This document shows, one piece after another, positions 13,401 through 57,699 of a stretch of DNA of 64,000 bases. Both the position numbers and the translations under genes were made by a program. This stretch comes from Lingula anatina (lineage: Eukaryota > Animalia > Brachiopoda). Position 1 is the stretch's first letter. Every line of letters begins with the position of its first letter. Under the pieces are notes generated by a model. That model ran no database searches and was not told the origin of the DNA. It saw only the letters and a program-made list of their open reading frames with translations. The stretch spans positions 16,058,001 to 16,122,000 of the forward strand of contig CM120646.1 in NCBI GenBank assembly GCA_051362555.1, given 5' to 3'.

Positions 13401-16400
13401 ACATAGACGTTGTGGTTACTGTATCAGTCGTTACAGCGGACGTTGTAGTTTCTACATCAGTTGTTGACATAGACGTTGTGGTAACTGTATCGGTCGTTAC
13501 AGCAGACGTTGTAGTTTCTGCATCAGTTGTTGACAAAGACGTTGTGGTTACTGTATCGGTCGTTACAGCGGACGTTGTAGTTTCTACATCAGTTGTTGAC
13601 ATAGACGGTGTGGTTACTGCATCGGTCGTTACAGCGGACGTTGTTGTTGCTGCATCAGTTGTCATAGTTGTTTCAGCATCAGTTGTTGGAATAGATGTTG
13701 TGGCTTCTGCAGCATTCGTATATGTAGACGCCGTTACTGCTTCATTAGTTGTTACAAAACTTTCTGCGTCATGTGATAAAACGGACGTTGTAGTTACTGC
13801 ATCAGTTGTTGAAGTAGAGGTTGTAGTTACTGCATCAGACGTTACAGTAGACGTTGTTGCTGCATCAGTTGTCACAGTTGTTTCTGCGTAAGTTGATGAA
13901 TCAGATGTTGTAGATTTTGCATTACTCGTTACTATAGACGCTGTTGCTGATGCATCAGTTGTCACAGAATTTTCACCAACAGATGTTAAGTCAGATATTG
14001 TAGATTCTGCATCACTTGTTGAAGTAGACGTAGTTGTCTCTTGATCAATTGTCACAGGTGTTTCTGCGTTAGTTGATAAAACAGACGTTGTAGTTTCTAC
14101 ATCAGTTGTTGACATAGACGTTGTGTTTACTGCATCGGTCGTTACAGCGGACGTTGTTGTTGCTGCATCAATTGTCATAGTTGTTTCAGAATCAGTTGTT
14201 GAAATAGATGTTGTAGTTTCTGGATCATTTGTTGAAGTAGACGTAGTTGTTTCTGGATCAGTTGTTGACATAGACCTTGTGGTTACTGTATCGGTCGTTA
14301 CGGCGGACGTTATAGTTTCTGCATCAGTTGTTGACATAGACGTTGTGGTTACTGTATCTGTCATTACAGCAGACGGTGTTGTTGCTGCATCAGTTGTCAC
14401 AGTTGTTTCAGTATAAGTTGTTAAAATAGATGTTGTTGTTTCTGCAGCATTCGTTAATGTAGACGCGGTTGTTGATGACTCGGTTTTTACAGTTGTTTCA
14501 GCATCAGTTGTTGAAATGGATGTTATAGTTTCTGGATCATTTGTTGAAGTAGACGTTGTTGTTTCTGGATCAGTTGTTAACATAGACGTTGTGGTTACTG
14601 TATCAGTCGTTACAGCGGACGTTGTAGTTTCTACATCAGTTGTTGACATAGACGTTGTGGTAACTGTATCGGTCGTTACAGCAGACGTTGTAGTTTCTGC
14701 ATCAGTTGTTGACAAAGACGTTGTGGTTACTGTATCGGTCGTTACAGCGGACGTTGTAGTTTCTACATCAGTTGTTGACATAGACGGTGTGGTTACTGTA
14801 TCGGTCATTACAGCGGACGTTGTTGTTTCTACATCAATTGTTGACATAGACGGTGTGGTTACTGTATCGGTCGTCACAGCAGACGGTGTTGTTGCTGCAT
14901 CAGTTGCCACAGTTGTTTCAGTATCAGTTGTTGAAATAGATGTTGTAGTTTCTGCAGCATTCGTTAATGTAGACGCCGTTGTTGCTTCATCAGTTGTTAC
15001 AAAATTTTCTGCGTCATGTGATAAAACGGACGTTGTAGTTTCTGCATTAGTTGTCAGAGTTGTTTCTGCATTAGTTGATGAAGCAAATGTTGTAGATTCT
15101 GCATTACTCGTTACTGTAGATACTGTTGTTGATGCATCAATTGCCACAGATGTATTAGCATCAGTTGTTAAAACAGACGTTGTACTTTCAGTTTCAGCTG
15201 TTGAAGCAGACGTTGTAGTTACTGCGTTAGTCCTTACAGTAGATTTTGTTGCTGCATCAGTTGTCACAGTTGTTTTTGCGTAAGTTGATGAAGCGGGCGT
15301 TGTAGATTCTGCATTACTCGTTACTGTAAACGCCGTTGTTGATGCATCAGTTTTCACAGTTGTTTCAGTATGAAATATTAAATCAGACGTTGTAGTTTCT
15401 GCATCAAATGTTGAAACAGACGTTGTAGTTTCTGCATCAGTCGTTACTGTAGACGCGGTTGTTGATGCCTCGGTTTTTACAGTTGTTTCAGCATCAGTTG
15501 TTGAAATGGATGTTATAGTTTCTGGATCATTTGTTGAAGTAGACGTAGTTGTTTCTGGATCAGTTGTTGACATAGACGTTGTGGTTACTGTATCGGTCGT
15601 TACAGCGGACGTTGTAGTTTCTACATCAGTTGTTGACATAGACGGTGTGGTTACTGTATCGGCCGTCACAGCAGACGGTGTTGTTGCTGCATCAGTTGCC
15701 ACAGTTGTTTCAGTATCAGTTGTTAAAATAGATGTTGTAGTTTCTGCAGCATTCGTTAATGTAGACGCCGTTGTTGCTTCTTCAGTTGTTTCAAAATTTT
15801 CTGCGTCATGTGATAAAACGGACGTTGTAGTTTCTGCATCAGTTGTCAGAGTTGTTTCTGCATTAGTTGATGAAGCAAATGTTGTAGATTCTGCATTACT
15901 CGTTACTGTAGATGCTGTTGTTGATGCATCAGTTGTAACAGATGTTTCAGCATCAGTTGTTAAAACAGACGTTGTAGTTTCTGCATCAGTTGTTGAGGTA
16001 GACGCTGTAGTTACTGCATCAGTCGTTACAGTAGACGCTGTTGTAGCTGCATCAGTTTTAACAGATGTTTCAGCAATAGATGTAAAATCAGCCGTTACTG
16101 CTTCATTAGTTGTTACAAAACTTTCTGCGTCATGTGATAAAACGGACGTTGTAGTTACTGCATCAGTTGTTGAAGTAGAGGTTGTAGTTACTGCATCAGA
16201 CGTTACAGTAGACGTTGTTGCTGCATCAGTTGTCACAGTTGTTTCTGCGTAAGTTGATGAATCAGATTCTGCATTACTCGTTACTATAGACGCTGTTGCT
16301 GATGCATCAGTTGTCACAGATGTTTCACCAACAGATGTTAAGTCAGATATTGTAGATTCTGCATCACTTGTTGAAGTAGACGTAGTTGTCTCTTGATCAA

Positions 16401-19400
16401 TTGTCACAGGTGTTTCTGCGTTAGTTGATAAAACAGACGTTGTAGTTTCTACATCAGTTGTTGACATAGACGTTGTGTTTACTGCATCGGTCGTTACAGC
16501 GGACGTTATAGTTTCTGCATCAGTTGTTGACATAGACGTTGTAGTTACTGTATCGGTCGTTACAGCAGACGTTGTAGTTTCTGCATCAGTTGTTGACATA
16601 GACGTTGTGGTTACTGTATCGGTCGTTACAGCAGACGTTGTAGTTTCTGCATCAGTTGTTGACATAGACGTTGTGGTTACTGTATCGGTCGTTACAGCAG
16701 ACGTTGTAGTTTCTGCATCAGTTGTTGATATAGACGTTGTGGTTACTGTATCGGTCGTTACAGCAGACGTTGTAGTTTCTGCATCAGTTGTTGACATAGA
16801 CGTTGTGGTTACTGTATCGGTCGTTACAGCAGACGGTGTTGTTGCTGCATCAGTTGTCACAGTTGTTTCAGTATCAGTTGTTAAAATAGATGTTGTAGTT
16901 TCTGCAGCATTCGTTAATGTAGACGCTGTTGTTGATGCCTCGGTTTTTACAGTTGTTTCAGCATCAGTTGTTGAAATGGATGTTATAGTTTCTGGATCAT
17001 TTGTTGAAGTAGACGTAGTTGTTTCTGGATCAGTTGTTGACATAGACGTTGTGGTTACTGTATCGGTCGTTACAGCAGACGTTGTAGTTTCTGCATCAGT
17101 TGTTGACATAGACGTTGTGGTTACTGTATCGGTCGTTACAGCAGACGGTGTTGGTGCTGCATCAGTTGTCACAGTTGTTTCAGTATCAGTTGTTAAAATA
17201 GATGTTGTAGTTTCTGCAGCATTCGTTAATGTAGACGCTGTTGTTGATGCCTCGGTTTTTACAGTTGTTTCAGCATCAGTTGTTGAAATGGATGTTATAG
17301 TTTCTGGATCATTTGTTGAAGTAGACGTAGTTGTTTCTGGATCAGTTGTTGACATAGACGTTGTGGTTACTGTATCGGTCGTTACAGCAGACGGTGTTGT
17401 TGCTGCATCAGTTGTCACAGTTGTTTCAGTATCAGTTGTTAAAATAAATGTTGTAGTTTCTGCAGCATTCGTTAATGTAGACGCTGTTGTTGATGCCTCG
17501 GTTTTTACAGTTGTTTCAGCATCAGTTGTTGAAATGGATGTTATAGTTTCTGGATCATTTGTTGAAGTAGACGTAGTTGTTTCTGGATCAGTTGTTGACA
17601 TAGACGTTGTGGTTACTGTATCGGTCGTTACAGCAGACGGTGTTGTTGCTGCATCAGTTGTCACAGTTGTTTCAGTATCAGTTGTTAAAATAAATGTTGT
17701 AGTTTCTGCAGCATTCGTTAATGTAGACGCTGTTGTTGATGCCTCGGTTTTTACAGTTGTTTCAGCATCAGTTGTTGAAATGGATGTTATAGTTTCTGGA
17801 TCATTTGTTGAAGTAGACGTAGTTGTTTCTGGATCAGTTGTTGACATAGACGTTGTGGTTACTATATCGGTCATTACAGCAGACGTTGTAGTTTCTGCAT
17901 CAGTTGTTGATATAGACGTTGTGGTTACTGTATCGGTCGTTACAGCAGACGTTGTAGTTTCTGCATCAGTTGTTGACATAGACGTTGTGGTTACTGTATC
18001 GGTCGTTACAGCAGACGGTGTTGTTGCTGCATCAGTTGTCACAGTTGTTTCAGTATCAGTTGTTAAAATAGATGTTGTAGTTTCTGCAGCATTCGTTAAT
18101 GTAGACGCTGTTGTTGATGCCTCGGTTTTTACAGTTGTTTCAGCATCAGTTGTTGAAATGGATATTATAGTTTCTGGATCATTTGTAAAAGTAGACGTAG
18201 TTGTTTCTGGATCAGTTGTTGACATAGACGTTGTGGTTACTGTATCGGTCGTTACAGCAGACGTTGTAGTTTCTGCATCAGTTGTTGACATAGACGGTGT
18301 GGTTACTGTATCGGTCGTTACAGCAGACGGTGTTGTTGCTGCATCAGTTGTCACAGTTGTTTCAGTATCAGTTGTTAAAATAGATGTTGTAGTTTCTGCA
18401 GCATTCGTTAATGTAGACGCGGTTGTTGATGCCTCGGTTTTTACAGTTTTTTCAGCATCAGTTGTTGAAATGGATGTTATAGTTTCTGGATCATTTGTTG
18501 AAGTAGACGTAGTTGTTTCTGGATCAGTTGTTGACATAGACGTTGTGGTTACTGTATCGGTCGTTACAGCAGACGTTGTAGTTTCTGCATCAGTTGTTGA
18601 CATAGACGTTGTGGTAACTGTATCGGTCGTTACAGCAGACGGTGTTGTTGCTGCATCAGTTGCCACAGTTGTTTCAGTATCAGTTGTTAAAATAGATGTT
18701 GTTGTTTCTGCAGCATTCGTTAATGTAGACGCCGTTGTTGCTTCATCAGTTGTTACAAAAATTTCTGCGTCATGTGATAAAACAGACGTTGTAGTTTCTG
18801 CATCAGTCGTTACAATAAACGTTGTTGTTCCTGCATCAGTTGATAAAAGAGTCATTGTAATTTCTGTAACAGTCGTTACAGTAGATGGCGTTGTTACTTT
18901 GCCTGTTGATATAGATTTTTCAGTATCAGTTATTAAATCAGATGTTGTACTTTCTGCATCAGTTGTTAAGGTTAACGTTGTCGTAACTTCATCAGTCGTT
19001 ACTGTAGACGTTGCTGTGGATGCTTCGGATTTCAGAGTTGTTTCAGCATCAATTGTTAAATCAGACGTTTTTGTTTCTACATCACTTGTTGAAGTAGACG
19101 TAGTTGTTTCTGCATCCGTTGTCACAGTTGTTTCTGCGTTAGTTGATAAAACAGACGATGTAGCTTCTGCATCAGTCGTTACTGTAGACGCTGTTGTAGA
19201 CGTAGTCTCTGCATCAGTTGTTGAAGCAGATTTTGTAGATACTGCATCAGTCGATACTGTTAACTCTGTTGTTGCTGCTCCTGTTGTCACAGATATTTCT
19301 GCATCAGATGTTACATCAGACGTTGTAGTTTCTGCATCAGTCGTTACAGCAGATATTATTGTTGCTGCATCAGTTGTCACAGATTTTTGAGCAACAGATG

Positions 19401-22114
19401 TTAAGTCAGACGTTGTAGTTTCTGCATCCCTTGTTGAAGCAGACGTTGTAGTTACTGCATCAGTCGTTACAGCAGACATTGTTGGTACATCAGTTGTCAC
19501 AATTGTTTCTGCTTTAGTTGATAAAATAGAAGTTGCAGTTCCTGCATCAGTCGTTATAGTAGACGTTGTTGTTGTTGCTTCAGTTGTCACAGATGTTTCT
19601 GCACTAGTTGATAAAACAGACGTTGTCTCTGCATTAGTTGTTGAAGCAAATTTTGTAGATATTGCATCAGTTGTTACTGTTGAAGTTGTAGTTGCTGCAT
19701 CAGTCGTTACAGTAGACGTTGTTGTTGCTGCATCAGTTGTCACAGATATTTCAGCAACAGATGTTAAATCAGACGGTGACGTTTCTGCATTAGTTGTTGA
19801 AGCAGACATAGTTGTTTCTGGAACAGTTGTTACAGTTATTTCTGTGTTAGACGATAAAACAGACGTTGAAGATCCTGCATCAGTTGTTGACATAGACGAT
19901 GTGGTTACTGCATCGGTCGTTACAGCGGAAGTTGTTATTGTTGCACCAGTTGTCACAGTTGTTTCAGCATCAGTTGTTAAAATAGTTGTAATTTCTGCAT
20001 CATTCGTTAATGTAGACGCCGTTGTTGCTGCATCAGTTGTCACAAAAATATCGGAGTCATATGATAAAACGGACGTTGTAGTTACTGCATAAGTCGTTAC
20101 AGTAGACGTTGCAGCATCAGTTGTCACAATTGTTTCTGCGTTAGTTGATAAAACAGGCGTTGTAGTCTCTTCATCAGTTTTGGAAATAGACGTGGTAGTT
20201 ACTGCATCAGGTGTTAATGTTGACGTTGTAATTGCTGCATCAGTCGTTACAGTAGACGCTGTTGTTGCTGCATCAGTTGTTAATGTTAACGTTGTCGTAA
20301 ATGCATCAGTCGTTATTGTAGACGTTGTTGCTGATGCCTCCGTTTTCACAGTTGTTTCTGCATCAGTCGTTACAGTAGACGTTGCTGCTCCAGCAGTTGT
20401 TAAAGTTGTTTCTGCACTGGTTGATATAACAGACGTTGTAGTTTCTGCATTAGTCTCTAATGTAGACGCCGTTGTTTCTGCATCAGTTGTCACAGATGTT
20501 TCTGCGCCATTTGATAAAACAGACCCTGTAGTTTGTGCATCAATTGTTGATGCAGATGTTGTAGTTACTGAATCAGTCGTGTCTAAAGACGTTGTCATGA
20601 AATAGGTCGCAGATGAAACTGTTGTTACTGTATCAGTTTCTACAGATGTTTCAGAATTAGTTATTAAATCAGATGTAATAGTTTCTGCATCAGTTGTTAA
20701 GGTAAATGTTGTAGTAAATGCATCAGTCGCTACTGTAGACGTTGTTGTTGCTGCATCAGTTGTGACGGATGTTTCGCCACCAGATGTTAAATCAGATGAT
20801 GTTGTTTCAGCAACTGTTGATGCAATAGATGTTGATTCGGCATCAGTAGTCACAGAGGATGTTGTTGTTGTTGTTGCACCAGTTTCCACAGAAGATGCTG
20901 TTTCCGTATCAGTTATTGGAGCAGATGTTGTTTCTGTGACAATTGTCAAGACGGGAGTCGTTGTTGCACCTGCCTTAGTGGTCTCAGAAGATGTTGTGTC
21001 AGTATCAGTTATCACAGAAATTGTTGATTCTGTGTCATTTGTTACAACAGCCGTTGTTTTCATGTCATCAGTCATAGGAGACATTTCTGTTGTTGCATCA
21101 GTTATCAAAGTAGACGTAGATTTTGTATCACTTGGTACTAAAGTTGATGTTGTCTCTGCGTTTGTCGTCACATTAGTCGTAGTTATTTCTGTGTCAGTTG
21201 TCATTAAAAAGGTGGTTTCTGTATTAGTTGTAACTACAGGCGAAATCGTTGGTTCTGCATTGGTTGTCATAGATGACGATATCGCTTCTGCATCTAGTGT
21301 CACAGAAGATGTTGTTTGTGCCTCAAATGCCACATCAGCTGTTGCTACTGTTGTTGTAGGCATGGTCGTTGTTTCAACGTCAGCCGTTGCTATTGTCGTT
21401 GTAGGCGTGATCGTTGTGACTTCATCAGTTGTTGCTAGTGTTGTTGTAGGCATGGTCATTGTTACATCATCAGTTGTTTCTAGTGTTGTTGTTGTAGGCG
21501 TGATCGTTGTGACTCCATCAGTTACTATCGTTGGTGTCGGCATTGTCGTTGTTACAACATCAGCTGTTGCTACTGTTGTTGTGAATAATGCACCTTCATC
21601 CGTTTTTCTTATCGATGTCTCCACAATCGTTTCCTCTTTAGTCGACGCATAAAAATATGTGTTTTTAGTAACCGTTGCTTCTAAATTCGTTTCGAAATAC
21701 ATGTCCCCTGCTGTTGATATTTCAGTTAATGAATCAAATTGAGGTCTACTTTCAGGAAACATTGTGGCCAGAGCAGTGTTGGACACAGGGTCAGTTGAGG
21801 AGTAGTCTAAAGTAGAAGTCCAAGAGTTTATCACAGATACTGTGTCTGGTTCAGAGGCCGTGCTGTCAGCCCAGCCCGGTGCCGTGGTAGTAGAAGACGA
21901 ATGAAGTGCTGTCACTGAATTCCCGGCCGCTGATGTAGGTGCCATATTGGTGCCACTGGTATCGTCTACAAAACCTGGCAGGGTGATCATCGTTGATTCC
22001 CCTGTACCCTGATCTGTATTAGAAAATAAGTTATAATCTCAGATTTGTATCTTATCAACGAGCTACTGTCAACGTTAATTTTCAGCATTATATAATAATG
22101 ATATTTTGTATGTT

Positions 22115-31272: not shown

Positions 31273-33176
31273 ATGACGACCCTGACAAATATTTGTCTCA
31301 TAGCTGCTATTGGTGTCCTGTCATGTGACGCAGCTTCGATCCCTCTCTGTGAGTATCTATACAAATATGATTTAATTCGTCAATTATTACTCATAAAAAT
31401 ACCGTTCTACGGCTTATAATGTGCTCTGTAAAAGTAAAAGTCAAGTCATTACCGATTAGCTAATCTGGTCCTTCCTGATGTTGATATTATCTTTATCTCA
31501 GTCTGGATGTTAGAGTTTACTGGCAACTTATCTTCAATATCGGCACGCCTCCGCGATTCCAGTACAACCTACACATGCTACCGAAACCTGCATGCTTGTA
31601 ATGGCGACAAGTTTCCAAGCTTTGAAATCATGGTATTGCACGCACTATTGCTCTACTCACATGGTATTGCTCTACTTTAAATCAGAGCATTATGTACTGC
31701 ATATCTGAAATATATCATTCTCATTGAGATTTGCGCAGATCCCGTTTAAATGATGTAAGACAAACCGATACTGTTGTCGTAGCAGTCGAAACAACTGCCG
31801 CTCCAGAGGCAGAAACTACTGCCGCTACAGCCGTAGAAACCACTACCGGATCAGTTGCCGAAACTACGACCGCTTCAGCAGTAGAAACTACTGCCGGTGC
31901 AGCCGCAGAAACCACCGCCGCTTCAGCAGTAGAAACTACTGCCGATTCAGACGTCGAAGCTACTGCTGCTTCAGCCGTAGAAACTACTGCCGGTTCTGCC
32001 GTAGAAACCACTGCTGCTTCAGCCGCAGAAACCACTGCCGGTTCTGCCGTAGAAACCACTGCTGCTTCAGCCGCAGAAACCACTGCCGGTTTTGACGTAA
32101 AAACCACTGCTGCTTCTGCCGTAGAAAGCACTGCCGGTTCTGTCGTAGAAGCCACTGCCGGTTCTGCCATACAAACCACTGCCGCTTCAGCCGTAGAAAC
32201 CACTGCTGGTTCTGCCGTAGAAACCACTGCTGCTACAGCCGTAGAAACCACTGTGGCCTCAGCCGCAGAAAGCACTGCCGGTTCTGCCGTAGAAACCACT
32301 GCTGCCTCAGCCGTAGAAACCACTGCCGGTTCTGCCGTAGAAACCACTGCTGCTTCAGCCGTAGAAACCACTGCCGGTTCTGCCGTAGAAACCACTGCCG
32401 GTTCTGCCGTAGAAACCACTGCTGCTTCAGCCGTAGAAACCACTGCCGGTTCTGCCGTACAAACCACTGCTGCTTCAGCCGTAGAAACCACTGCCGGTTC
32501 TGCCGTAGAAACCACTGCTGCTTCAGCCGTAGAAACCACTGCCGGTTCTGCCGTAGAAACCACTGCCGGTTCTGCCGTAGAAACCACTGCCGGTTCTGCC
32601 GTAGAAACCACTGCTGCTTCAGCCGTAGAAACCACTGCCGGTTCTGCCGTACAAACCACTGCTGCTTCAGCCGTAGAAACCACTGCCGGTTCTGCCGTAG
32701 AAACCACTGCTGCTTCAGCCGTAGAAACCACTGCCGGTTCAGCCGTAGAAACCACTGCCGGTTCTGCCGTAGAAACCACTGCCGCTTCAGCCGTAGAAAC
32801 CACTGCCGGTTCTGCCGTAGAAACCACTGCCGGTTCTGCCGTAGAAACCACTGCTGCTTCAGCCGTAGAAACCACTGCTGGTTCTGCCGTAGAAATCACT
32901 GCTGCTTCAGCCGCAGAAACCACTGCTGCTTCAGCCGTAGAAACCACTGCCGGTTCTGCTGTAGAAACCACTGCTGCTTCAGTCGTAGAAACCACTGCCG
33001 GTTCTGCCGTAGAAACCACTGCTGCTTCAGCCGCAGAAACCACTGCTGCTTCAGTCGTAGAAACCACTGCCGGTTCTGCCGTAGAAACCACTGCTGCTTC
33101 AGCCGCAGAAACCACTGCTGCTTCAGCCGTAGAAACCACTGCCGCTTCAGCGGAAGAAACTACTCCTGTGCGCTAA
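31273..33176 (+). CDS. Secreted low-complexity Ala/Thr/Val/Glu/Ser-rich octapeptide-repeat protein (mucin-like, no globular domain), ~490-510 aa
   Basis: Exon 31273-31348 encodes the signal peptide MTTLTNICLIAAIGVLSCDAASIPL, preceded by a good acceptor (ctcgcctgcag) and ending T|gtgagt (phase 1). Phase-compatible acceptors for the repeat exon lie at 31783 (tgttgtcgtag) or 31729 (cattgag); stop at 33174-33176; AATAAA at 33389. Exact acceptor unresolved. Confidence 0.78.
31783..33170 (+). repeat. 24-bp coding tandem repeat, ~58 units, (G/A)SAVETTA
   Basis: gccgtagaaaccactgc recurs every 24 bp. Confidence 0.95.
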
Positions 33177-36292: not shown

Positions 36293-36333
<41 letters not shown>

Positions 36334-39300
36334 CACACATAAAAAATACAGAAATACAGAAACCTATTTACCTGCCCCTTGATATCAGTGAGGATGCCCT
36401 CTACAGTGGTGAACTTTCCTCCCAGAGTGCCGTGCTCCAATGTGAGTTCTAACTCAGGAATCTCAAGTCCACATGTGTCAGACTGAAACGGGGAGAAAAA
36501 TCTGGTCATTTCCCAAATTAACACCCCACTACACAAGCCATTTGGTCAGTTTAATGGACATGTGCATACTAGGTTTACACTAGGATACAAAGCCTTTCAG
36601 AAACTCATCTTGGGGATTTCAGTCAAATCAGAAAATCAAACCAAATCAATCATGTAACAGAAGAACAACACCCTAAGCACTAAACTTAAAAGCACTATTA
36701 TTACTGATGCATCTCTGAAGATCTACTACTTCAGAGATGCATCAGTAATACTACTTTTTTCTTTAAGATCTATATGGTGAATTGACATGAAACTTTAAAT
36801 CACCAAGCAAATAATGAACTCAAAATATAATTAGTGCAATCCTACCTTCAACAGATCCCTGGACAGGTCAGAGGGATCAGTCAAATGAAGCGATATTTTA
36901 ATGCCTTTAGGTTCAATCCCAGCACCTCCCTTCACCTCATTGTCTTTGGCGCCACATACATCACACACGGTGGCCATGATAACAACCTGCTTGAAGTTTG
37001 GAATATCTGGACTATGTTAAGGAGATATTATATATGATATTGTATGAAGGCCGTTAGTAATATTTCTGTATTACATGTAGCAATGGAACAGTCCTTCCCC
37101 AACTTACTACCTATAGTCACGTCTTCCCTGTCACGTGGAAAATGTGTGGAAAAATTGGCAATGTCTTTAATTTATGTCAGGAAAAACCTCTTTAACTTAT
37201 CAGTAAAAAAAAAATAAACTGAAAAATAAATAACCAATGGCAATGATAAAGGAGGTGGACTAGACCTGGCCAGCACAATACAGCTCAATCTGTTACAGTG
37301 CTCTATTACATCCAGAACTGCAGTGCATGCTATTACACTATGAGAAATTGACACGTGGTACTAGCATCTGATTGTATTTAATATGATATGAATGATGTTG
37401 ATCCACAAGGATACCCACTAACTTCATGTTAGTATCACAAGGACTGTTACAGTTTGGGCAGTTACTGCGGAACTGGAGCACCTAGAAAACGAAATTAAAA
37501 ATCAGTTCAACCATGAAAATCACTGATAAAACATGTCTATCAATGCTTGCATGGTTACTATGAGATAAAAAAGGCGAAGCTATTATATAAAGTTCATTGT
37601 TGCTAATTGTAATTTTTAAACAGGTTAAAATGAAATTCAAACTGGAGTCCTAGACAAATAAACATTAAACAATTTTTAATTTATAAGACTTCTGTACATT
37701 CTAAATGCCTTTTTAAAATTTTATACTCAACTCCATCAAGTGATACATTTGTGTCAATAAAACAGAGCTCAAAACAAATTACCTCATCTTTTAAATTGGC
37801 TTCCGCAGCTGCTTCTTCTGCTTCTGGTTCTATGTTCTCTGTGGCATCATCAGGCTGAAATGGCAAACACCCACAAGTCAATAAAAGTAACATAACAGGT
37901 CAAGTTCCCACCCCTGCAGCAGCCTTGTCAATACCAATTTGAAATGAAAAAAAAAAAAAAAAACTATAACCTGTATACAAACATTCCTTACTCCACAATA
38001 ATATTTGACACTGCTCTTGTTTTGCATAAATTTCACGACCCGTACTTCTCTTCAGATAAGTTGTACAAATCAATGACACAGTTGTATTAATCTACATTTA
38101 CTTTGAATAATAACATATTTGTGATCATACCAGGATCCCCAGAAGTTTATTTTGTTCCAGATTCCTGGTATATTTTGTAACTGTGAGTCCAGGGTCAGCC
38201 TTGGGAGCACTGGGATTCTCAATATAACTGTTTCCACTGGGATCATTAACAAGCTGTAAGATGAAATATTTTCCATTTACACATTTATGTCCTACACTGT
38301 GGATCCACTCTTACTGAACACATTGTTTTTTTCCCCAATATACAAAACATATTATTCTCATCTACATAAAAATGAAAAATAAGTTACAATTTTTCTTTCT
38401 AAAATTTCACATTTATAAAGCTCTAATTTTTAATCTGGCAAAAATAATAGCTTAGATACACTTGGACAAGTTATTTCTTAGAGAACAGCCTCATGGTATT
38501 TGCACAAGATCAGTCCTAGGGTTACTATCCATATGTAAAAGCAGACGCAAATCTTTGGAAAGGCTGACTTGTTAAAACAATCATCTTGTAAACAACATAT
38601 CACAGTCCTGGTTTTTTTTATCACGGTGAGAATTTAAAAGATATATTTTCACTATTGTACAAATATGGGCCTTAACTTCTCACTGTCAACATATAATGAC
38701 TTACAAAAATGAAGGGTTTCTCCAGATCTTTTAATTTCTCCAACTTGGTAATAAATTCATCTATTTTGGCTGCAGTATCTGGATCTATTGCCTGAAAAAA
38801 AAAAAAAGGACCAATGACATTTATATCAAATGTAAATGTTTTACAAAGCAAACAAAGTAAAGCAGAATTATGCTGGGGACACCATAAAGGAAGTAACCTT
38901 AAATATATCCTTTCTCATTTGAAAGTCACTATTATACCAGTCTGATAATCGCAATTGTCTTACCTTCCGTACTGGCTGGTTCTGCTGTAATCCATCCACG
39001 GCTCTAGTGATCACCCCTTCTACTGTAGTTAGCACTAAAACCAACCAAGTTTTATTTTATTATTCTTTTTTAGAGAAAGTTTATACTAAAAGATATCTTG
39101 ACCCAGGTGTCACCACCGACTCAAGATGAGACTAATTCAGGATACCAAGATTGCTGATGTATAGAAAGCCAATTCTTCACAAATTAGTGCTCACAATTTG
39201 GAACTACCCCACTTATTCCAAGGTATCATTCTGTGAAGAGTTACTAGTTTTATCATAACATTAAAAAAACAAAAAAAACTTTGTAACACGAATACAGCTT

Positions 39301-40588
39301 AATTTTCAGAACTTGAGATTCATTTTCTGTCAGTGCCACTTCACATAATGACCATATTTTAAGTATCTGGATTGCAATTTTTTACTGACAAGAAGGATAA
39401 AGCTCTGAAAACATTTTCATGTCGTGAACCAGTTTAAGACTTCTATCAGTCAGTTGAGTTAAGGTTACTTGCTATCCAAGTTTAGCATGTTTAGCCAAGT
39501 CCAAAAATCTTTTTTTTTTTTTTTTTTTGTGAAACAAAGACACAGAACTTACATCCTTTGTTAGGTGGAGCCTCAAATTCCAGACTCGGAATGGACATGG
39601 TTGCAGTGTTGGATAGCACCACCTGTCTGTTCAAGTCCTGAAACAAGACCAATAATGTTTTTTTTATTATCATTCGAAATGTGTTGCAGATTAAATCAAT
39701 TGAAAAAGTTGTATAAAACATATTAAATCATAAAGAACAAAGCAAAGGTTCAAAGACTGTTTGGTTTAAAGTAATGTGATCCTTTCGTGAGAATAATTGA
39801 TATTTGCCAGCTTTCAAACAAGTGGAGATCTAGAGTCTCTTCAAGTGAAAGTGGCCCCCTAAGAGTTTCTGTAACTTCTCCACCTGTTTAGCTGCCACCG
39901 TGAGCTTCAAGATGACCCCTCTCTCCTGTATGGGCCCTGCAGACTGAATCTCACTGTCCTGGTGACCACACTGGTCACAGCTGAACGACGACACAATCAC
40001 ATCCTTGAAAAATGGAATCTTGGTTAACATCAACCTGGTGGTGCCCTGGAGAAGTTATAAAACAGAGATTGTTTAAAAATGGCCTAGATAACTCCTTGTA
40101 TAAATCACTCTTGCAGTGCTCATGTAGACAATGAAAAAGATCAATATTGAAACCATTATATGATGATGGTAACAATGACAACACTTTAAAATTACAAACT
40201 GGAAAAAACAAAAGAGATGCTTTCCTAATCATAAAGAACACAATAAGTTGAACAGGTCATTAATATCTTACATGTATATTACACAAATATATAGATATTT
40301 CTTTAAAATCTCTACATTTTTCTGTACATGACAACCCATGGATATTTATTTCATTATTCTAGAAAAATAGCATCTTCATCTCGCAATATAGCCCTCTTTC
40401 ACTCTCACATCATGTAAACATATAATAAAATGGTGCCCTGAAAGAAATACAGGGTACAGTACCTGTTCATGGCAATTCAAACACAGACTTTCTATTTCAT
40501 GGAACGGAGCATCATCATCTGGGTTGATATTCAGGAAAATTGGTCCATTTTTTTCTGCCAATGCCTGCTCCTCCGTGTTTTCTGACAT
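34466..40588 (-). CDS. ZPR1: Zinc finger protein ZPR1
   Basis: Exons 40463-40588 (EIESLCLNC), 39884-40045 ([25 protein letters not shown]), 39553-39637 (DLNRQVV), 38964-39034 (LTTVEG), 38705-38791, 38131-38253 ([11 protein letters not shown]), 37783-37854, 37415-37481 (CPNC), 36846-37006 ([23 protein letters not shown]), 36372-36482 ([11 protein letters not shown]), 35653-35742, 35210-35278 ([11 protein letters not shown]), 34466-34582 ([11 protein letters not shown]). All phases consistent; two C4 finger/A-B modules. Probable 5' UTR exon ending at 41137. Confidence 0.96.
36273..36328. repeat. (CT)n / (AC)n microsatellite
   Basis: Directly visible. Confidence 0.9.
36699..36750. repeat. Perfect 22-bp inverted repeat with 8-nt loop in ZPR1 intron
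   Basis: tattactgatgcatctctgaag (36699-36720) / cttcagagatgcatcagtaata (36729-36750). Confidence 0.9.
37007..37414 (-). other. U12-type (minor spliceosome) GT-AG intron in ZPR1
   Basis: 5' site GTATCCTT (37414-37407); branch site TCCTTAAC (37023-37016) 9 nt before the intron end; no polypyrimidine tract. Confidence 0.9.
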
Positions 40589-41445: not shown

Positions 41446-48178
<6,733 letters not shown>

Positions 48179-50555: not shown

Positions 50556-50628
50556 GGCTCCGTGGTGTAGCGGTTATCACATCTGCCTAACACGCAGAAG
50601 GTCCCCGGTTCGATCCCGGGCGGAACCA
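50556..50628 (+). tRNA. tRNA-Val-AAC: tRNA-Val (anticodon AAC)
   Basis: 73-nt cloverleaf: A box TGGTGTAGCGG, anticodon arm TCTGC-CTAACAC-GCAGA, B box GGTTCGATCC, discriminator A, followed by a TTTTT Pol III terminator; one C3-A70 mismatch in the acceptor stem. Confidence 0.95.
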
Positions 50629-52030
50629 CTTTTTGTTACATCGCAGCGTTACTGTAATTCGAAATCCGATTGTCGGTTCATAGTGGTTTGGAGACTTGTG
50701 GGTCCCAGATAATAAGATGCAAAAGGACATGAGTTATAAGAAGAATACCAGCGGGTCTGTTCTGTGGGAAAATTAATTTCAGATCTGAAATAAACACAGA
50801 AGTGAAATTGGTATTATGTCTGCAACATCTGGAATTATATTGAATCTTCACCCAAAAATATATGAAGTTAAGATCACTGACAAAAGTAAATATAAATGGG
50901 AAGCACACACTTTAGGGTTAAATTTTGAGCTGTTGTCGAAAAGTCCACCAGACCCACCCAATGCTGCCCCCTCTTCTCTTCCACACAACCCTAGTAAGCG
51001 TACTTGTAGGCAGATTCGGTCTTATAATAACATAATATGATGATATAATATATTAAAACAACGGCTCCATCCTATTTCAGTCATCCTGAATTTTCAAATG
51101 CCCCGTATCAGAAAACGACTGCCACAACCGTACGTGCCATAAAATCGGCGTTAAATGAATGGTTTTATACACCTATTTAATTTTCTTCTCTTATTATAAA
51201 TTGCATTCTATTTGTAAACATTGATAATTGAAATCTGTGTCGGAACAATTGAGTAAACAAATAATTAAAGACAGCATTAAATGCTTGTGTAATAAATTCA
51301 CCAAAGAACCCAGTAATTGCATATTTGACTTTGTCTATACAAAATAATTAACAGATTGAATAAAAATACATTTTAAGCAATGCATTTAGTTAAAACATCA
51401 AATTCTAATCAATTTCCCTTTCTCTTCTTTATGAAAAAATGGGTATTTTTTTAAGGAAGTTTTCTTATTTCCATTAAGTCATCATACCAAGGGACAAACC
51501 GAATTAAACACTGTCAACCACATAATAGCTTTACGCTGCACCGTCTTCAAAATTTTGGACGTAATTTGGTCTACTTATCTGCCCCGTTTATGAACGATCT
51601 TGAACTATAAAGTATTTCGATATACAACTATAGCGTACTGTATATATGCTACACCAAGCTTATTACAACTGAATAGTTCATCGCAACAAAATTTTAAAAA
51701 TCAACGTCTAGATATCTTCATACAAATTCTTGAATGCATTTCATTTCCACATATATCCACACCACACCTAACCCATAACAACAATTTTATGATTTTTATA
51801 ACCCAACATTCCTTATAGTTTTTTGTCATATTAAATTTAAAAAGTTAACATATATTTTCATTTTTGTTGTCGGCGGTTTATGAAAAACATCACGAACACA
51901 TTCCATTATCAAGCGCAACTTCTCAGATTAGAAGTCCCGAATTTGTTATCCATAATTAAACAGTTATAATAATAATGATAATAATAATAATTGGATGTTT
52001 TCAATATACACATGAATTATTATAAAGTAT

Positions 52031-55000
52031 TCAAACAAAATCTCCGCAGAATATACAAAATTTGTTCAAAAGGTAATGACACAGCGTCCCGGGCTTTGTG
52101 GCTCTTGTAAAACTTTGGGAGAACTTATTATACAAATGCACAGCAAAAGACTCTCTTTGCAGAACGCGTTGGAGGTCAGGAGTGTTTTTATCGATGAAAC
52201 ACTTCGTTTTCACTTTTCTATACTCTATCGGGTAAAATGACTTCTGATATAAGCCTCTCACAATGCAAGACTTATTGCTTTGCAAATCCTCAGCACTGCT
52301 GACATCACACATCCAAGTGGGATGTCTTCTCGCTACGCGCGTGAGGAGACTTGGTCCGTTCGCCTCCCAGACATTCTGATTATAGCTATCTAGGAATTCT
52401 TTTATACACTCCCGGAGAAAAGGGTTGTGCTTGTCAAACTTGAGAACTGCTCCATTTAACACAGTATGATCACTGTTTTCCCATGCAGTTACATTATTCA
52501 AATCTTTCAAACTCTTAACTAAAATAACGTCAGTGTCCATATAAATGCCGCCATGAAGATAAAGCAGTACTATTCTGATCAAATCTGTCTCGTGGCTATA
52601 CCAAAATCGTCCTTTTGAAATAACCGGTATTTTTTTCAAAAAGGTTTTTGATCGTTCTGTAAAAGTGTGTGGATCCAATCTTTGCACATTTTTTAGTAAC
52701 CCTCTGAGAGTATAATTTCTGACCTCAACATGAAAGCCCGCTTCAGTGAACGCAGAAACCTTGTTTTGTGACAGAGAATTGCTTAAAATGCGTACTTTTG
52801 CATTGGGATGGTGGTAAAAAATACTCTCGAGCGAACGGCGATTCCTTTGCGTTACTTCACTTGTTGTGTAAACCTGAAAAAACGTCAATGCAGTTCTTTC
52901 GTTTGTCATTAAAGGTTTAAGAGGCACTATCCCAAATGTAATCGCCGTTTCTCGCAATCCAGAGAATTTCCGTATCTCGTGCCAGAGGGTGGCGCGAAAG
53001 TGCATGTGAATTTCATGATTTGGGTTCATTTCTGGTTTGTCCCAGTTAAAGTTTTCCAACCCCTTGTATGACGTCATCTTTCTGTCCACCGTTACTGTAT
53101 GGAAAAGTTTCGCTAAACCTTCTGTGCGATTTCCTCCTCCTCCGGGTAAGAACGCCGTTTCCACAAAAACAACTGGAATTCCCATGGCAACGCATGGAAG
53201 AGCGCTATGGATGCGTGACGTCAAAACCAATTTTGCACGTGAATATTGTTCCATTAAACGGCGCGCTTCTTCATACCGTTCTATTCTGTCAAATTTCATC
53301 GAAAAGGGCAAGTTATGAGTGACCCTAATAATTGATTTTCTTATGTGAGAAGGAACAATTATTTCTACAGCTCGCCAATCCACGTCAACGACAAACACGT
53401 CCTCTCTTTCTGTAACCGGATTGGGATTGTGCATCAAAAGTGTCAAACAGGCCGACATATACACTGAAATATTCTGCTCGCGTAAAACTTTGACCGTGTT
53501 CTCGTCACGAGCACCTACGGATCCATGTTCTTTGAAGTAATTATTCCCAGGCACAGTTAATAGCTTCTTCCGGAAATTTGGTCCAAAATACATGGATAAC
53601 ATTAAAGGCTTAAGATTAATATTTGGCGGCCATATCATGTCACCGGCGTTATACCATGCGTTTAGAAATATTGTAATTGATTCATTTGGTTTCTTGGTTT
53701 GGCCGGACTTTTTTCTTAGATGAGCTCTAGTATCTTCAGCTTCAAATTTGTCATCTCCGGCTTGGCTCAAGTAAAAGGATCTATTATTTATATTATCGAG
53801 CTTTCTGTTTCTATTTCTAATGTTTTCCGTCACATTGACAAGTTTCTCAGTAATGTCCGGCTGCCCGTATGTCTCAATGCACGTGACGTCCCATGTGTCA
53901 CGGTCCACAAATCGGTCAGCAAAAGGAAGAAACTGGATCGCAGCTAGGGTCTGAATCTCATCTCCGGCGTTGATATCTTTCGCCACAGTGACTCGATGGT
54001 CAAAGCTTAAGACACCATAAAGATTATCTGGTAAAAATTTGAATACAGGCTCCTTGGCAGTCATTTTAACTTGTTTGTTATCTACCTGACTAAGAACTTT
54101 TGAACGCCACAAAACTGAATCGGTGTGCCAGTTTTGGATCTGACTTCTACTATGACTATTGTAAGTTGACTGAATCACAACCATGGTATTTTTGACGAAA
54201 GGAGAACGTCGTTCAAACCTGGATATTGAAAATATACTTTCATTACCCACCCATTCACCCTTGAAATATTCATCGGGTAACGTTGAGGTCAATATTGACG
54301 GTAAATCTATGAACAGTCCACCAAATGTCCAGAGTGAGAGCAAAACACTTATTTCTTGCATGAGCACTTGAAATTTACGACCCATGAGCAATTTGAAGAT
54401 TGCAGATTTGGAAACAAAATCATCCAGGGGAGTATTCTTTGCTAAGACAGGTAGTAGTAAACGAAGAACTTTGGAGTGTTTAGGTAGCTTGTCTTCTATT
54501 TGATCCATACATTCACTGCTTCCACACATGAATATTACACTCCTTGCCGGATTGAACTGGTTAAATGTTTTTATTTTATCCATTAGCGGTAGAGGAATTG
54601 GGGTGTAGTGAGACCACACCATGACAACGTCTGAGGTCGTATTTGAATATGGGCCAAATTGATGATGCGCTGTGAGTAAAGTATCCTCTTTATAGAATGT
54701 TGAAAAGGATGATTCGGACTCGTCAGTTATTGGCATAACAGTAGGTAAAACGCGAGTAAACCGACGAGGAGGGCCCTGATTCTCCGGGTGGATGGTTGCA
54801 CCTTCAGATGACTTGACGGGCCGTGCCTTCGCCCTCAAATTTCGACTTGCTAAACCTTTTTCTTTTGCTGGTGATACGAACCAACTGGCGTTGCCAAAAC
54901 AAAGCTCATCACCTGGGTGTTTGGCTTGATCCCTAGATAGGCCATCTAGAAAGACACAGGTTGGTGTAGAACCTAATATATTCTTTGAGTCAGATGTTCC

Positions 55001-57393
55001 AACTGATATTTACTTATACAAATTACCCATACTCAACATCGTGCACATAGTATAATATAACAAATTATTCAGTTCAATGAAATATTGAAATATAAATACC
55101 ATGAATTGCTTTCATTTTAGAGATAAAACTAATATAAAGAAGTGGACATTAAAATATTTATGAATTAGGCTTCAAAGTTGAATCAAAATTAATTACTGCA
55201 GAGGGATAAAGCTACTTTAAAGCCGTTTACTGCCTTTAAAAGTCAGAACCCTACTATTTTTGGGTAAGAAATTGAAATGAGATTTTGCTTGATGGGTGGG
55301 ATCCCCCCATAATTCGTTTTAATATTTAATCAGTTCTGTCTTTCATGATACCATCCAGTTGGGAAAGGTCTCTCCCAATTACTTTATTAGTGGCGTTTAT
55401 AACACTGAGAAGTTTTTTCCCGTTCCTCCAATGTAGCCTTACCATACCAGCTGGTAATACCAAACGTTTAGATGCTCTCAATAAAACAGCTCAAAAAATG
55501 ACTAAAAACGGTCTCATTATCTGTAAATGTTCTAAGTGAAAAGTGCAGCCTTTGTCTTGCTTTCCTTGTGAAAATGGGGATTTTCACTGTAAAAAAAGTA
55601 CGCTGTAATCCGTCCTTTATTTAATTCCGTCAGCTTCGGGCCATTTTCAGATATATCATTTCCCTGTATGTCAGTATGTTAATACGTACTGCTCTGGGTG
55701 ATATTTTGCTGCCACCTCATTTTTGCTACCCATTACGGTTATTTCCAAATTCATTTATATCATATGAAAATAAGCTGAACAAACAAAAATTGCGGATTTA
55801 TATCCTTGTTAGTCACCAGACATACTTATTTAGACATGCAGAGAATGAGTAAAAAAACTTAGTGGAGAACGGATTTGAAAATAAATAGCTTAAATAAAAA
55901 GCAGACAAGAACTTCATAAAATATGAGACAGCAGTTCTTGGGCATAGTAAGGTTTCACAAGACAGCCAGCCTAGTCTTGATGCTCTAAATGGTCGTCACA
56001 CCCTCTAGAATTTGAGATCTCAATAATGTTGTCTATAGGTTTTATATTTTGGATTCTGTCTTCTCCATAGTAACCAATGGCCATTTGACAAATATGAGCA
56101 CATGTCACCGGTTGGCAGCCCCAAAGTTAAGAGAGGGGTGTGCACTTGCAATATTCCTCAACACCTTTTGCTTGCAGCATGGCAATGCTACTCTCTTACA
56201 GCCCACTTGGTAACGGAATTTATAAACGAAAACTACATTCTGCTCATGGACCAAACCTACAAAAGCACAACTGAACTTCTTCGAGACGAATTGTGGAGAG
56301 TTGTATATAGGAGAAACCAATACCCAGCAAATTTACAATAGTTGAGACAAGCTTTGACACAAGAGTGGAACACAATCCCCCAGCAAAGATCAGTGGCACT
56401 AGTGTACAACATGCAACGCCACGTATTGGGTCTTTATCGTACATGTGGGGGTCACACCCGCTACTGATGGGTACAATTCTATACTTGTCTTAATAAAGAA
56501 ATGTAAAAAGAATTTTGAAAGTTTGAGTTCATTTTCAGGGGCTACATTAAAAATACCCAGGAAGTGTGTTTTTTGTTTCCTTTGCATGTCAGGGCATAAA
56601 ACATTTTGTATCTGCAATGATGATACAAGTAAAGAATAAAGAAAAGTTGACATTTGTGGCAGTGTATTGTTGGACATAAATACCGAGAGAAAGCACTCGC
56701 ATTTCATCGAAAATAAAAATCCTAAAAGCAAATAAAGCGTATATCGCCACGGTCACATAACACCTTAGGTATGTAGCCTATATAGGCCTATAAGTCAAAT
56801 GTTAAATTACCTGTATATTTCAAGCTTTTACTTTAGCTCCCATTAAGAAATAAATTACATCAAGTCAAGCCGCTTAAATATCTTAAAGCAATAATAACTC
56901 ATTGTTTTGGCCAAAAAATGAATTTTCCTGGAGTAAACATCAATTTTCCCATACTTACCAATGGCTAATGAATCCATTTTTACATTCAAAGATGGTCCCT
57001 GGTTTTTTTCTAAAAAGTTTGGTTTTTTGTTAAAATCTCTTAAGAGATTTTAACAGAGTATAGACATCAATGGAGGTCACGTGGTCTAAAGACAAGTTCA
57101 GATATCAGAATAATAGTTATAACTGCTGTTTTTGTGGTAAAACAGAATAAATTATATTTCTATGAGTTATTCACAAGGTTTTTATTGTGAAATATAGATC
57201 TCATACGAAGAGTTATTATCCCTTTAACCGATAACATGCGTAGAATTCTTATCGGGGACAGATATAAGTCCATACGCTTACCTTCGAAATAAAAAAGAAA
57301 TGCTGAAATGTAAACAAACGAAGCAGTCACCAATACACACAGCAAGAGCAGTGAGGTTCTTCGTATTCTACATCCACCCACTTTGACCCTCAT
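52031..57393 (-). CDS. Type II membrane multi-domain glycosyltransferase (~1008 aa): degenerate GT32-like + polysaccharide pyruvyltransferase-like + GT32 alpha-1,4-glycosyltransferase (A4GALT/A4GNT-like)
   Basis: Exon 1 57282-57393 (MRVKVGGCRIRRTSLLLLCVLVTASFVYISAFLFYFE, basic tail + TM, G|gtaagc) splices in phase to exon 2 52031-54945 (ctttctag|AT). Motifs: NTPLDDF and LWTFGGLFIDLP; NAGDEIQTLAA, VGARD, SACLTL, LVLTSRIHSALPCVAMGIPVVFV; ETDLIRIVLLYLHGGIYMDTD, LNGAVLKF, NGPSLLTRV, FYPI, AVHLYNK. Confidence 0.88.
55830..56467 (+). mobile_element. Decayed, internally deleted Tc1-family transposase (fossil) in the glycosyltransferase intron
   Basis: Translation ...ELLRDELWRVVYRRNQYPANLQ*LRQALTQEWNTIPQQRSVALVYNMQRHVLGLYRTCGGHTRY* ends with the Tc1 C-terminal signature GGHTRY (stop 56465-56467). 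Left boundary approximate. Confidence 0.8.
56923..57155 (+). repeat. Dispersed ~230-bp repeat, copy 2
   Basis: Similar to 47210-47435, same orientation. Confidence 0.75.
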
Positions 57394-57555: not shown

Positions 57556-57699
57556 TACCCTCTACCAGGGCGACATACTGATTTTCCACAGATATTCACC
57601 GATACATGTATGTCTCTAGATAAATAGACAGTCATTTTGGTCTGATGTCGATTCAGCAAAAAATGCCCACAATAATAACCGCGGCCCTGGTAGAGGGTA
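57556..57699. mobile_element. 144-bp MITE with perfect 16-bp TIRs and a near-perfect 9-bp flanking duplication
   Basis: taccctctaccagggc / gccctggtagagggta; flanks ggctaaatg (57547-57555) and gggtaaatg (57700-57708); absent from the paralogous region near 61505. Confidence 0.8.

Follow-up and report, generated by a model that had tools for sequence, protein, structure and literature searches.

Does this locus of the brachiopod Lingula anatina encode an animal enzyme that caps glycans with pyruvate? The initial annotation had read it as one open reading frame with a type II anchor, fusing a polysaccharide pyruvyltransferase-like domain to an alpha-1,4-glycosyltransferase. The gene lies on the minus strand of the window, the 64-kb stretch of DNA analyzed here, and is modeled as two predicted exons, 57393-57282 and 54945-52031, with a product of 1008 aa (Table 1). 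The single-frame model had to be given up: the membrane anchor sits apart from the luminal domains in a separate exon of 112 nt, whose frame reaches a stop at codon 78 if read through without splicing, and a phase-1 GT..AG intron (57281-54946) puts this exon in frame with exon 2. The splice is a predicted one, no RNA read among the aligned runs (depth 1-2) spanning the junction. Every motif that had been pointed out is carried in a single frame by a stop-free stretch of 992 codons (52031-55009, minus strand), and coding exon 2 comprises 970 codons without interruption. The protein is likely membrane anchored in the Golgi, with a predicted type II topology; it has 11 N-glycosylation sequons and a single anchor at aa 12-37, which depends on the predicted splice, and the N terminus is hydrophobic in a similar way in the Lingula relatives P0002 and P0003. 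The membrane anchor is followed by a degenerate GT32-like domain, then the PF04230 domain, and lastly an intact GT32 domain. Thus, the proposed joining of a pyruvyltransferase-type domain to an intact GT32 domain stands, but a third, degenerate domain had been missed.

The neighboring genes in the window, split by introns, encode a MUC4-like protein (NIDO/VWD/C8), ZPR1, and a eukaryotic porin. A bacterial gene or contamination is ruled out by these intron-split eukaryotic neighbors, by the Lingula proteins that are the top relatives, and by RNA reads of the same species label on the gene. The idea that the adjacent giant mucin gene supplies the enzyme's substrate was set aside as unsupported, proximity being its sole argument.

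Table 1. Predicted features of the gene, in window coordinates
Feature	Position	Strand	Evidence or remarks
Exon 1, predicted	57282..57393	-	Signal-anchor aa 12-37 (hydropathy 2.53) after a short, basic tail on the cytoplasmic side; splice donor GT at 57281
Intron, predicted phase-1 GT-AG, 2336 nt	54946..57281	-	Contains MITE-like repeat
Exon 2	52031..54945	-	Stem and all three luminal domains; TGA end
Degenerate GT32-like domain, GT-A fold	54029..54643	-	D-L-P replaces GT32 DxD
Polysaccharide pyruvyltransferase domain, PF04230, GT-B-like	52931..54025	-	Pfam score, motifs, predicted fold
Low-confidence loop, ~60 residues, inserted in pyruvyltransferase domain	53693..53869	-	pLDDT <50 at model residues 288-346
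Intact GT32 domain, PF04488 and PF04572	52034..52897	-	D-x-x-R and DxD (52537-52529); 74% identical to Lingula P0001

The three Pfam families named in the initial annotation were all recovered above cut-off: PF04230 in the central domain (54.4 bits against a gathering cut-off of 25.3; E 2.3e-14; profile positions 1-277 of 280) and both PF04488 (55.7 bits; cut-off 23) and PF04572 (84.7 bits; cut-off 22.3) in the C-terminal domain. The motifs likewise lie where they had been placed, with NAGDEIQ (53971-53951), VGARD (53518-53504), SACLTL (53455-53438), and TSRIHSALPCVAMGIPV (from 53221) in the central domain and GGIYMDTD (52552-52529), with DTD as the DxD, in the GT32 domain. Validated pyruvyltransferases are defined by NxGD, Rxxx(S/T), and H motifs (PMC10629545); the motifs given there and in PMC10435577 (NxGD, Rxxx(S/T), and R-x-H) are present here as N363-x-G365-D366, R517-x3-T521, and R615-x-H617 in the 1008-aa numbering, and R644 is also conserved. 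By motif match rather than superposed coordinates, the domain keeps the residues equivalent to D106/R217/R337/H339 of the Schizosaccharomyces pombe enzyme Pvg1p. Across 207 aligned domains, these positions are conserved in 192 (D), 197 (R), 191 (R), and 199 (H) cases, figures that are inflated because the homologs were gathered mostly with this domain as query.

The predicted structure points in the same direction. The model of the isolated domain (pLDDT 84.7) has a two-Rossmann fold, and among 48,161 structure chains its closest matches are Pvg1p (PDB 5AX7; Z 13.6, rmsd 4.7, 248 aligned), bearing out the comparison that had been suggested, and Klebsiella WbbZ (PDB 6X1L; Z 12.4, rmsd 4.4, 214 aligned). 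The best glycosyltransferase, at Z 10.0, comes next after these two solved pyruvyltransferases. Foldseek E-values were weak (5e-4, with an epimerase close to level); a profile search of the PDB sequences returned Pvg1p as the sole match below E 1 (E 0.0035), and a search of the same sequences with a single sequence gave no significant match. The domain shares only 14-15% identity with Pvg1p and WbbZ, which, with the high rmsd and the Z of 8-10 reached by GT-B transferases and epimerases, leaves some room for a pyruvyltransferase scaffold that moves another group, or for an ordinary GT-B glycosyltransferase. We consider either quite improbable, as every family motif is kept and two pyruvyltransferases stand above all glycosyltransferases in the structural ranking.

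The same choice can be weighed on the transporter side. The homologs collected include genes of a sponge (Halichondria), two cnidarians (Xenia and Hydractinia), and two sea stars (Patiria and Acanthaster), whose proteins have the same domains with an added N-terminal phosphate-translocator (TPT) domain. This domain occurs in 45 of the 166 proteins of the first homolog set and is retained even where the C-terminal GT32 is missing (P0126, P0135, P0140, and P0158). Were the central domain to move another group, the fused TPT would import a nucleotide sugar or other phospho-donor; consistent with this, its feature-based neighbors include nucleotide-sugar transporter clusters, and 76 of 86 fused transporters have Phe at a site that is Asn in plant PEP translocators, Phe there disfavoring PEP in plant TPT. 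Against it, all four phosphate-binding residues (K/Y/K/R) of the solved TPT are kept in 58 of 81 fused domains, which score best on PF03151 and TIGR00817, under the TIGR cut-off. An intact transporter site accompanies an intact pyruvyltransferase site in 55 of 73 proteins versus 3 of 8 without one (Fisher p 0.04, ignoring kinship), a link that keeps the expected direction but loses significance once relatedness is taken into account (6 independent pairs, p 0.25). Because of the PF04230 score, the residues matching Pvg1p, the fold ranking, and the TPT fusion in relatives, it is likely, on sequence and model grounds, that the central domain transfers pyruvyl.

The two flanking domains appear to differ in activity. 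The degenerate domain matches the C-terminal GT32 in hhalign (P 98%, E 3e-13), and its model residues 30-228 align with a GT-A structure (Z 15.2, rmsd 3.3, 183 aligned). In most long relatives it stands ahead of the pyruvyltransferase; it has a DxD in 6 of 131 relatives and is likely noncatalytic. The C-terminal domain, with GT-A matches at Z 14-15.6 for model residues 614-897, is a predicted retaining alpha-glycosyltransferase, the label alpha-1,4 deriving only from the Pfam name. GT32 enzymes form alpha linkages, and GT32 and GT8 are both families of retaining alpha-transferases. A4GALT and A4GNT, the GT32 enzymes with which this domain shares the PF04488 and PF04572 matches, the DxD, and the GT-A fold, are single-domain enzymes, unlike the window protein.

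The initial annotation had combined these activities in the order add a sugar, then pyruvylate. In its strict form, which we regard as unlikely, this proposal has the central domain pyruvylate the very residue, an alpha-linked sugar, that the GT32 domain attaches. In its favor, both sites are intact in the window gene and, among the 100 relatives scored, in 33; the glycosyltransferase partners identified belong to GT32 or GT8 and lie on one side of the pyruvyltransferase or the other in separate clades, and bacteria have pyruvate on alpha-linked sugars (PMC6801904). The order is weakened, however, because 54 of the 87 relatives whose pyruvyltransferase site is intact lack the GT32 DxD and because animal pyruvate is found on beta-galactose, as in the two animal structures described in reviews (Microciona and Aplysia); the acceptors of Pvg1p and WbbZ are beta-Gal as well. 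Conversely, 12 of 13 relatives with an altered pyruvyltransferase site keep the DxD, an anticorrelation that on independent pairs has the same direction and is not significant. Furthermore, D-x-x-R and DxD occur together in none of six named nonbrachiopod animal proteins.

The closest relatives are three Lingula proteins of 63-67% identity (LOC106160056, LOC106160055, and LOC106160029, each a RefSeq "uncharacterized protein"), which form one clade with the window gene (support 99-100) and share its domain order. All three domains are 65-74% identical to those of Lingula P0001, the stem 50%, and the window gene is either a distinct Lingula paralog or comes from a related species. Close nonbrachiopod relatives include P0005, P0011, P0015, P0019, P0051, P0053, and P0127. 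A single clade of brachiopod and other animal genes was rejected both under LG+G4 (AU p 0.012, 81 rows) and under a mixture model (AU p 0.0009, 41 rows), in tests on quick trees with the clade defined after tree inspection. The relatives include a foraminiferan transcript, possibly of prey origin. In a scan of viral sequences, 14 loci matched at 24-41% identity, and the top BFVD matches, offered as a lead only, are glycosyltransferase fusions of giant viruses (E 3e-19 and 2e-12). A GTDB scan with a single domain, which detects close relatives only, found none among 45 pattern matches, and the named matches contain no protein of Aplysia or another mollusc.

The TPT domain is absent from the window protein and from a six-frame search of the window (best E 0.31). 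If no PEP reaches their Golgi, brachiopods might use the GT32 activity only, or this copy might be a weakly expressed redundant paralog. Several observations fit: two of the three Lingula RefSeq models reach only the early part of the GT32 domain, a fourth model breaks off inside the pyruvyltransferase domain, some relatives have lost the pyruvyltransferase site (P0004, P0021, and P0131), and expression is low. Nine RNA runs were found by species label and seven aligned to the stretch; three have reads on the gene, in all 18 at at least 99% identity from about 6% of each run, and in this small read sample X5 has no reads and X4 and X9 have none on the coding exon. Nonetheless, we hold this reading to be very improbable, given the uninterrupted 970-codon exon, catalytic residues that are all intact, and a pyruvyltransferase domain 71-75% identical between brachiopod paralogs.

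On balance, we favor, with somewhat better than even confidence, a Golgi enzyme in which a PEP-dependent pyruvyltransferase acting on glycans is fused to a predicted retaining alpha-glycosyltransferase, with the GT32 domain as an exchangeable accessory. In such a scheme, a TPT-family exchanger, a separate protein in the brachiopod and fused in the sponge, cnidarian, and sea star relatives, would bring PEP into the Golgi lumen. The central domain would hold PEP through R517, R615, H617, and perhaps R644, and D366 would position the diol of a terminal sugar, most likely galactose, for formation of the pyruvate ketal and release of phosphate, leaving a negative, chain-terminating cap. The degenerate domain may serve as a noncatalytic scaffold or acceptor-binding module. 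The C-terminal GT32 would add alpha-linked Gal or HexNAc to the same glycan class, as an accessory and exchangeable activity, and need not provide the sugar that gets pyruvylated.

Known systems offer partial precedents. Pvg1p shares the type II topology (predicted in the window protein), the PF04230 fold, and the D/R/R/H active-site residues, but it is a single-domain protein of 401 aa with 15% identity to the window protein, which has two extra GT32-type domains. It depends on the separate Golgi PEP transporters Pet1p and Pet2p, whereas the animal relatives have a TPT-family transporter fused to the enzyme. WbbZ has the NxGD, RxxxT, and H motifs and is partnered by WbbY, a bifunctional polymerase; in this pair a glycosyltransferase is accompanied by a pyruvate cap that ends the chain. 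Unlike the window protein, WbbZ is bacterial, is not joined to its glycosyltransferase, and is 14% identical. Paenibacillus/Bacillus CsaB (TIGR03609) belongs to the same Pfam family, with equivalent Arg and His PEP residues, but acts on lipid-linked ManNAc, and the window domain, at 15.7 bits, falls below its curated cut-off of 213.1. The notion that the cap may stand in for sialic acid is an analogy from fission yeast.

In agreement with the initial annotation, no characterized animal pyruvyltransferase was found in the literature searched; genome papers might carry these genes in their supplementary tables under the Pfam name. At 850-1270 aa, the proteins described here would have fallen outside a published family survey that kept only sequences of 250-600 aa, a filter that we infer is why they went unnoticed. 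As regards products, the claim of pyruvylated glycans in animals is upheld by a sponge proteoglycan and by the glycolipids of Aplysia nerve, but the snail galactans also cited are absent from the review examined. Since 1993, a role in the species-specific adhesion of sponge cells has been ascribed to a pyruvylated trisaccharide. For brachiopods, cnidarians, and sea stars, the literature searched does not mention pyruvylated glycans.

More broadly, and more tentatively, at a little short of an even chance in our judgment, marine animals may possess an undescribed Golgi pyruvylation pathway built on one multidomain family. Its sponge, cnidarian, and sea star members would each combine PEP import and transfer to glycans in one polypeptide, and this enzyme would make the pyruvylated galactose epitope of the sponge aggregation factor; brachiopods would have gained their form, without transporter and with active GT32, in a separate event, perhaps from a protist lineage. 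A fusion of transporter and enzyme that serves a non-nucleotide donor in the Golgi would be of interest to glycoengineering. If the family acts as proposed, glycans with an anionic cap are to be expected in brachiopods, cnidarians, and sea stars, and, because related genes occur in a sponge, cnidarians, and sea stars, the family is a candidate, open to testing, for the enzyme that makes the long-known pyruvylated glycans of sponge cell adhesion. Its named, expressible members include a protein of Halichondria panicea, a species classic in glyconectin work.

The minus-strand gene at 52031..57393 encodes a predicted 1008-aa protein in which three Pfam families exceed their cut-offs (PF04230, 54.4 bits; PF04488, 55.7; PF04572, 84.7). 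The motifs named in the initial annotation were all recovered at their positions, in a single frame of a 992-codon stop-free stretch, and the C-terminal GT32 domain is intact. The same annotation had included the membrane anchor in a single ORF; we find it outside the 992-codon ORF, in a separate predicted exon of 112 nt. A third domain, N-terminal of the pyruvyltransferase domain, is GT32-like: its profile matches that of the C-terminal GT32 (P 98%, E 3e-13; two control pairs both gave P <1%), and its predicted model (pLDDT 81.4) aligns to GT-A folds at Z 15.2. This pseudo-GT32 has D-L-P where a DxD is expected, a motif kept in only 6 of 131 relatives. The order is therefore anchor, pseudo-GT32, pyruvyltransferase, GT32.

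The proposal that the central domain has a pyruvyltransferase fold held when the domain was modelled alone (pLDDT 84.7). The fission yeast pyruvyltransferase Pvg1p ranked first of 48,161 chains (Z 13.6, rmsd 4.7, 248 aligned). Second came 6X1L, identified as WbbZ in PMC10629545 (Z 12.4, rmsd 4.4, 214 aligned), with glycosyltransferases and epimerases below at Z ≤10.0. Foldseek also placed Pvg1p first, but the match was weak and an epimerase almost tied. A profile search recovered Pvg1p at E 0.0035, and the ESM Atlas returned PF04230 clusters at 0.90-0.91. The family motifs are NxGD, Rxxx(S/T) and H (PMC10629545), and the active-site residues are D106, R217, R337 and H339 of Pvg1p with their CsaB equivalents (PMC4872226, PMC10435577). 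To these correspond, by motif match, D366, R517, R615 and H617, conserved respectively in 192, 197, 191 and 199 of 207 aligned domains (those of >230 residues, cluster members excluded). The domain does not belong to the CsaB equivalogs.

To assess the role of the GT32 domain, 100 relatives were scored, after setting aside nine proteins of GT8 type and those whose C-terminal match was weak or short. Both sites are intact in 33, the pyruvyltransferase site alone in 54, the DxD alone in 12 and neither in one. Six of the animal proteins with a name are not from brachiopods, and D-x-x-R and DxD occur together in none of these. In other clades a GT8 domain stands on the N-terminal or the C-terminal side of the pseudo-GT32/pyruvyltransferase core, or there is no C-terminal domain. 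Since the sites vary separately and such clades exist, the two activities are separable, although the relatives were gathered mostly with the pyruvyltransferase domain. Two groups of relatives (P0025, P0074, P0110, P0125; P0085, P0118, P0123) carry GT8 in place of the C-terminal GT32, or N-terminally, and P0024 has an extra C-terminal methyltransferase-like domain. GT32 enzymes form alpha linkages. The pyruvate structures reported from animals are instead on beta-galactose (4,6-Pyr-beta-Gal in Microciona, 3,4-Pyr-beta-Gal in Aplysia; PMC6801904, PMC6994554, PMC7828597). On account of this mismatch and of the separability, the model of the initial annotation, in which one protein strictly adds a sugar and then pyruvylates it, ranks second and seems rather unlikely. 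We lean modestly towards a model with the pyruvyltransferase as core and the alpha-transferase as accessory. Some pyruvyl transfer, common to both models, is probable.

An exhaustive search returned 2775 representatives at E ≤0.001. The best 150 of these, with the first 26 matches and the window protein, gave a set of 166 typed with local HMMs. Forty combine a phosphate-translocator (TPT) domain with pseudo-GT32, pyruvyltransferase and a C-terminal domain, five have the first three without the last, 33 lack TPT, and the remainder are shorter or stand-alone; part of the C-terminal matches are GT8. A longer-protein profile search gave 73 matches. Named four-domain members among them are proteins of Halichondria panicea, Xenia sp., Hydractinia symbiolongicarpus, Patiria miniata (two) and Acanthaster planci. 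No TPT domain occurs in the gene under study, and a search of the 64-kb window detected none. The TPT domain of the relatives has a match in the solved translocator of Galdieria (E 6e-17), and all four phosphate-binding residues (K204, Y339, K362, R363; bioRxiv 10.1101/169169) are present in 58 of 81 domains. Because the Golgi transporters Pet1p/Pet2p deliver PEP to Pvg1p in fission yeast, the fusion may be read as a donor importer joined to its transferase. However, 76 of 86 fused TPT domains have Phe where plant PEP translocators have Asn, which counts against so simple a reading. The transporter site is intact in 55 of 73 proteins with an intact pyruvyltransferase site versus 3 of 8 without (Fisher p 0.04), the GT32 DxD shows no such association (p 0.26), and neither association is significant on independent pairs.

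P0126, P0135, P0140 and P0158 form the sister group of the animal clade with four domains. They have TPT, a DxD-keeping first GT32-like domain and pyruvyltransferase but lack the C-terminal GT32, and may represent the older architecture. Among P0007, P0008, P0009, P0200, P0204 and P0208, several paralogs come from ENA contigs of equal length (1.7 Mb and 4.6 Mb) and cluster beside the sponge protein, a pattern suggestive of local expansion with mixed loss of transporter or catalytic sites. A similar pyruvyltransferase domain is seen in giant-virus glycosyltransferase fusions (BFVD A0A3G4ZUI3, A0A481Z2T3; viral-scan loci L001-L014). In quick, unrooted trees of the pseudo-GT32 and pyruvyltransferase region, built on a hand-picked subset, sponge, cnidarian and sea-star proteins form one clade with further sequences (support 96-97). 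Outside this clade, the brachiopod genes group with a transcript of the foraminiferan Bolivina and other sequences (support 81 under LG+G4, 97 under a mixture model). AU tests of a grouping named after the tree was seen reject placing both sets of animal sequences together (p 0.012 with 81 rows, p 0.0009 with 41). Two entries into animals would fit this topology, as would an ancient duplication followed by reciprocal losses.

The intron-split genes in the window (MUC4-like, ZPR1 and a eukaryotic porin) and its tRNA-Val mark it as animal DNA (scan of 131 of 166 candidate ORFs). The three top-ranking relatives of the gene come from Lingula anatina (63-67% identity).

Features of the window
Feature	Position	Strand	Remarks
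MUC4-like mucin gene	632-22038	-	5217-codon stop-free Thr-rich tandem-repeat exon (6385-22038), then NIDO, VWD, C8 exons
24-nt-unit tandem repeat, ~1.4 kb	31721-33176	both open	plus-strand reading would be a further Ser/Thr-rich or an Ala-rich repeat exon
ZPR1 zinc-finger gene exons	36294-40054	-	
Porin (VDAC/Tom40 family) gene exons	42189-47843	+	
146-bp satellite, ~12 copies	44182-45924		between porin exons
tRNA-Val(AAC) gene	50556-50629	+	
MITE-like element	56883-57227		in intron; 23-nt terminal inverted repeats, central palindrome
Exon 1	ATG at 57393, 112 nt	-	basic tail, hydrophobic segment aa 12-37
Small inverted-repeat element	57556-57699		close upstream of exon 1

The predicted intron runs for 2336 nt from its GT donor (57281) to its AG acceptor (54946), and its removal keeps the protein in frame; unspliced read-through meets a stop at codon 78. 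Among nine RNA runs chosen by species label, about 6% of each of X1, X2 and X3 gave 25, 9 and 13 reads within 51400-56600; counting those with 99% identity or better leaves 12, 4 and 2. X5 had none there. Over the coding exon, X4 and X9 had no reads and X7 had a trace. These reads point weakly to low expression. Exon-read orientation fits a minus-strand transcript in X1 and X3 and is mixed in X2; a small number of X1 reads fall in the intron. Paralogs account for the reads at 90-95% identity, and manual translation of one loose end gave a match to the relative P0002. The MITE-like element is a high-copy repeat, as thousands of RNA reads match it at 90-95% identity with varied flanks.

Full-text searches covering the main text of articles outside subscription journals yielded neither a characterised animal pyruvyltransferase nor a description of the pseudo-GT32/pyruvyltransferase/GT32 architecture. 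PMC8724618, in its available text, treats pyruvylation solely as a substituent, and a 2019 review restricted its sequence survey to 250-600 aa. H. panicea glyconectin is partly sequenced, and glycans of this kind have sulfated and/or pyruvylated hexoses; the texts consulted gave no direct statement of pyruvylated H. panicea glycans. The chemistry is of a known kind; the animal enzyme, the core with its pseudo-GT32 and the fusion to a transporter make up a variant that is so far uncharacterised.
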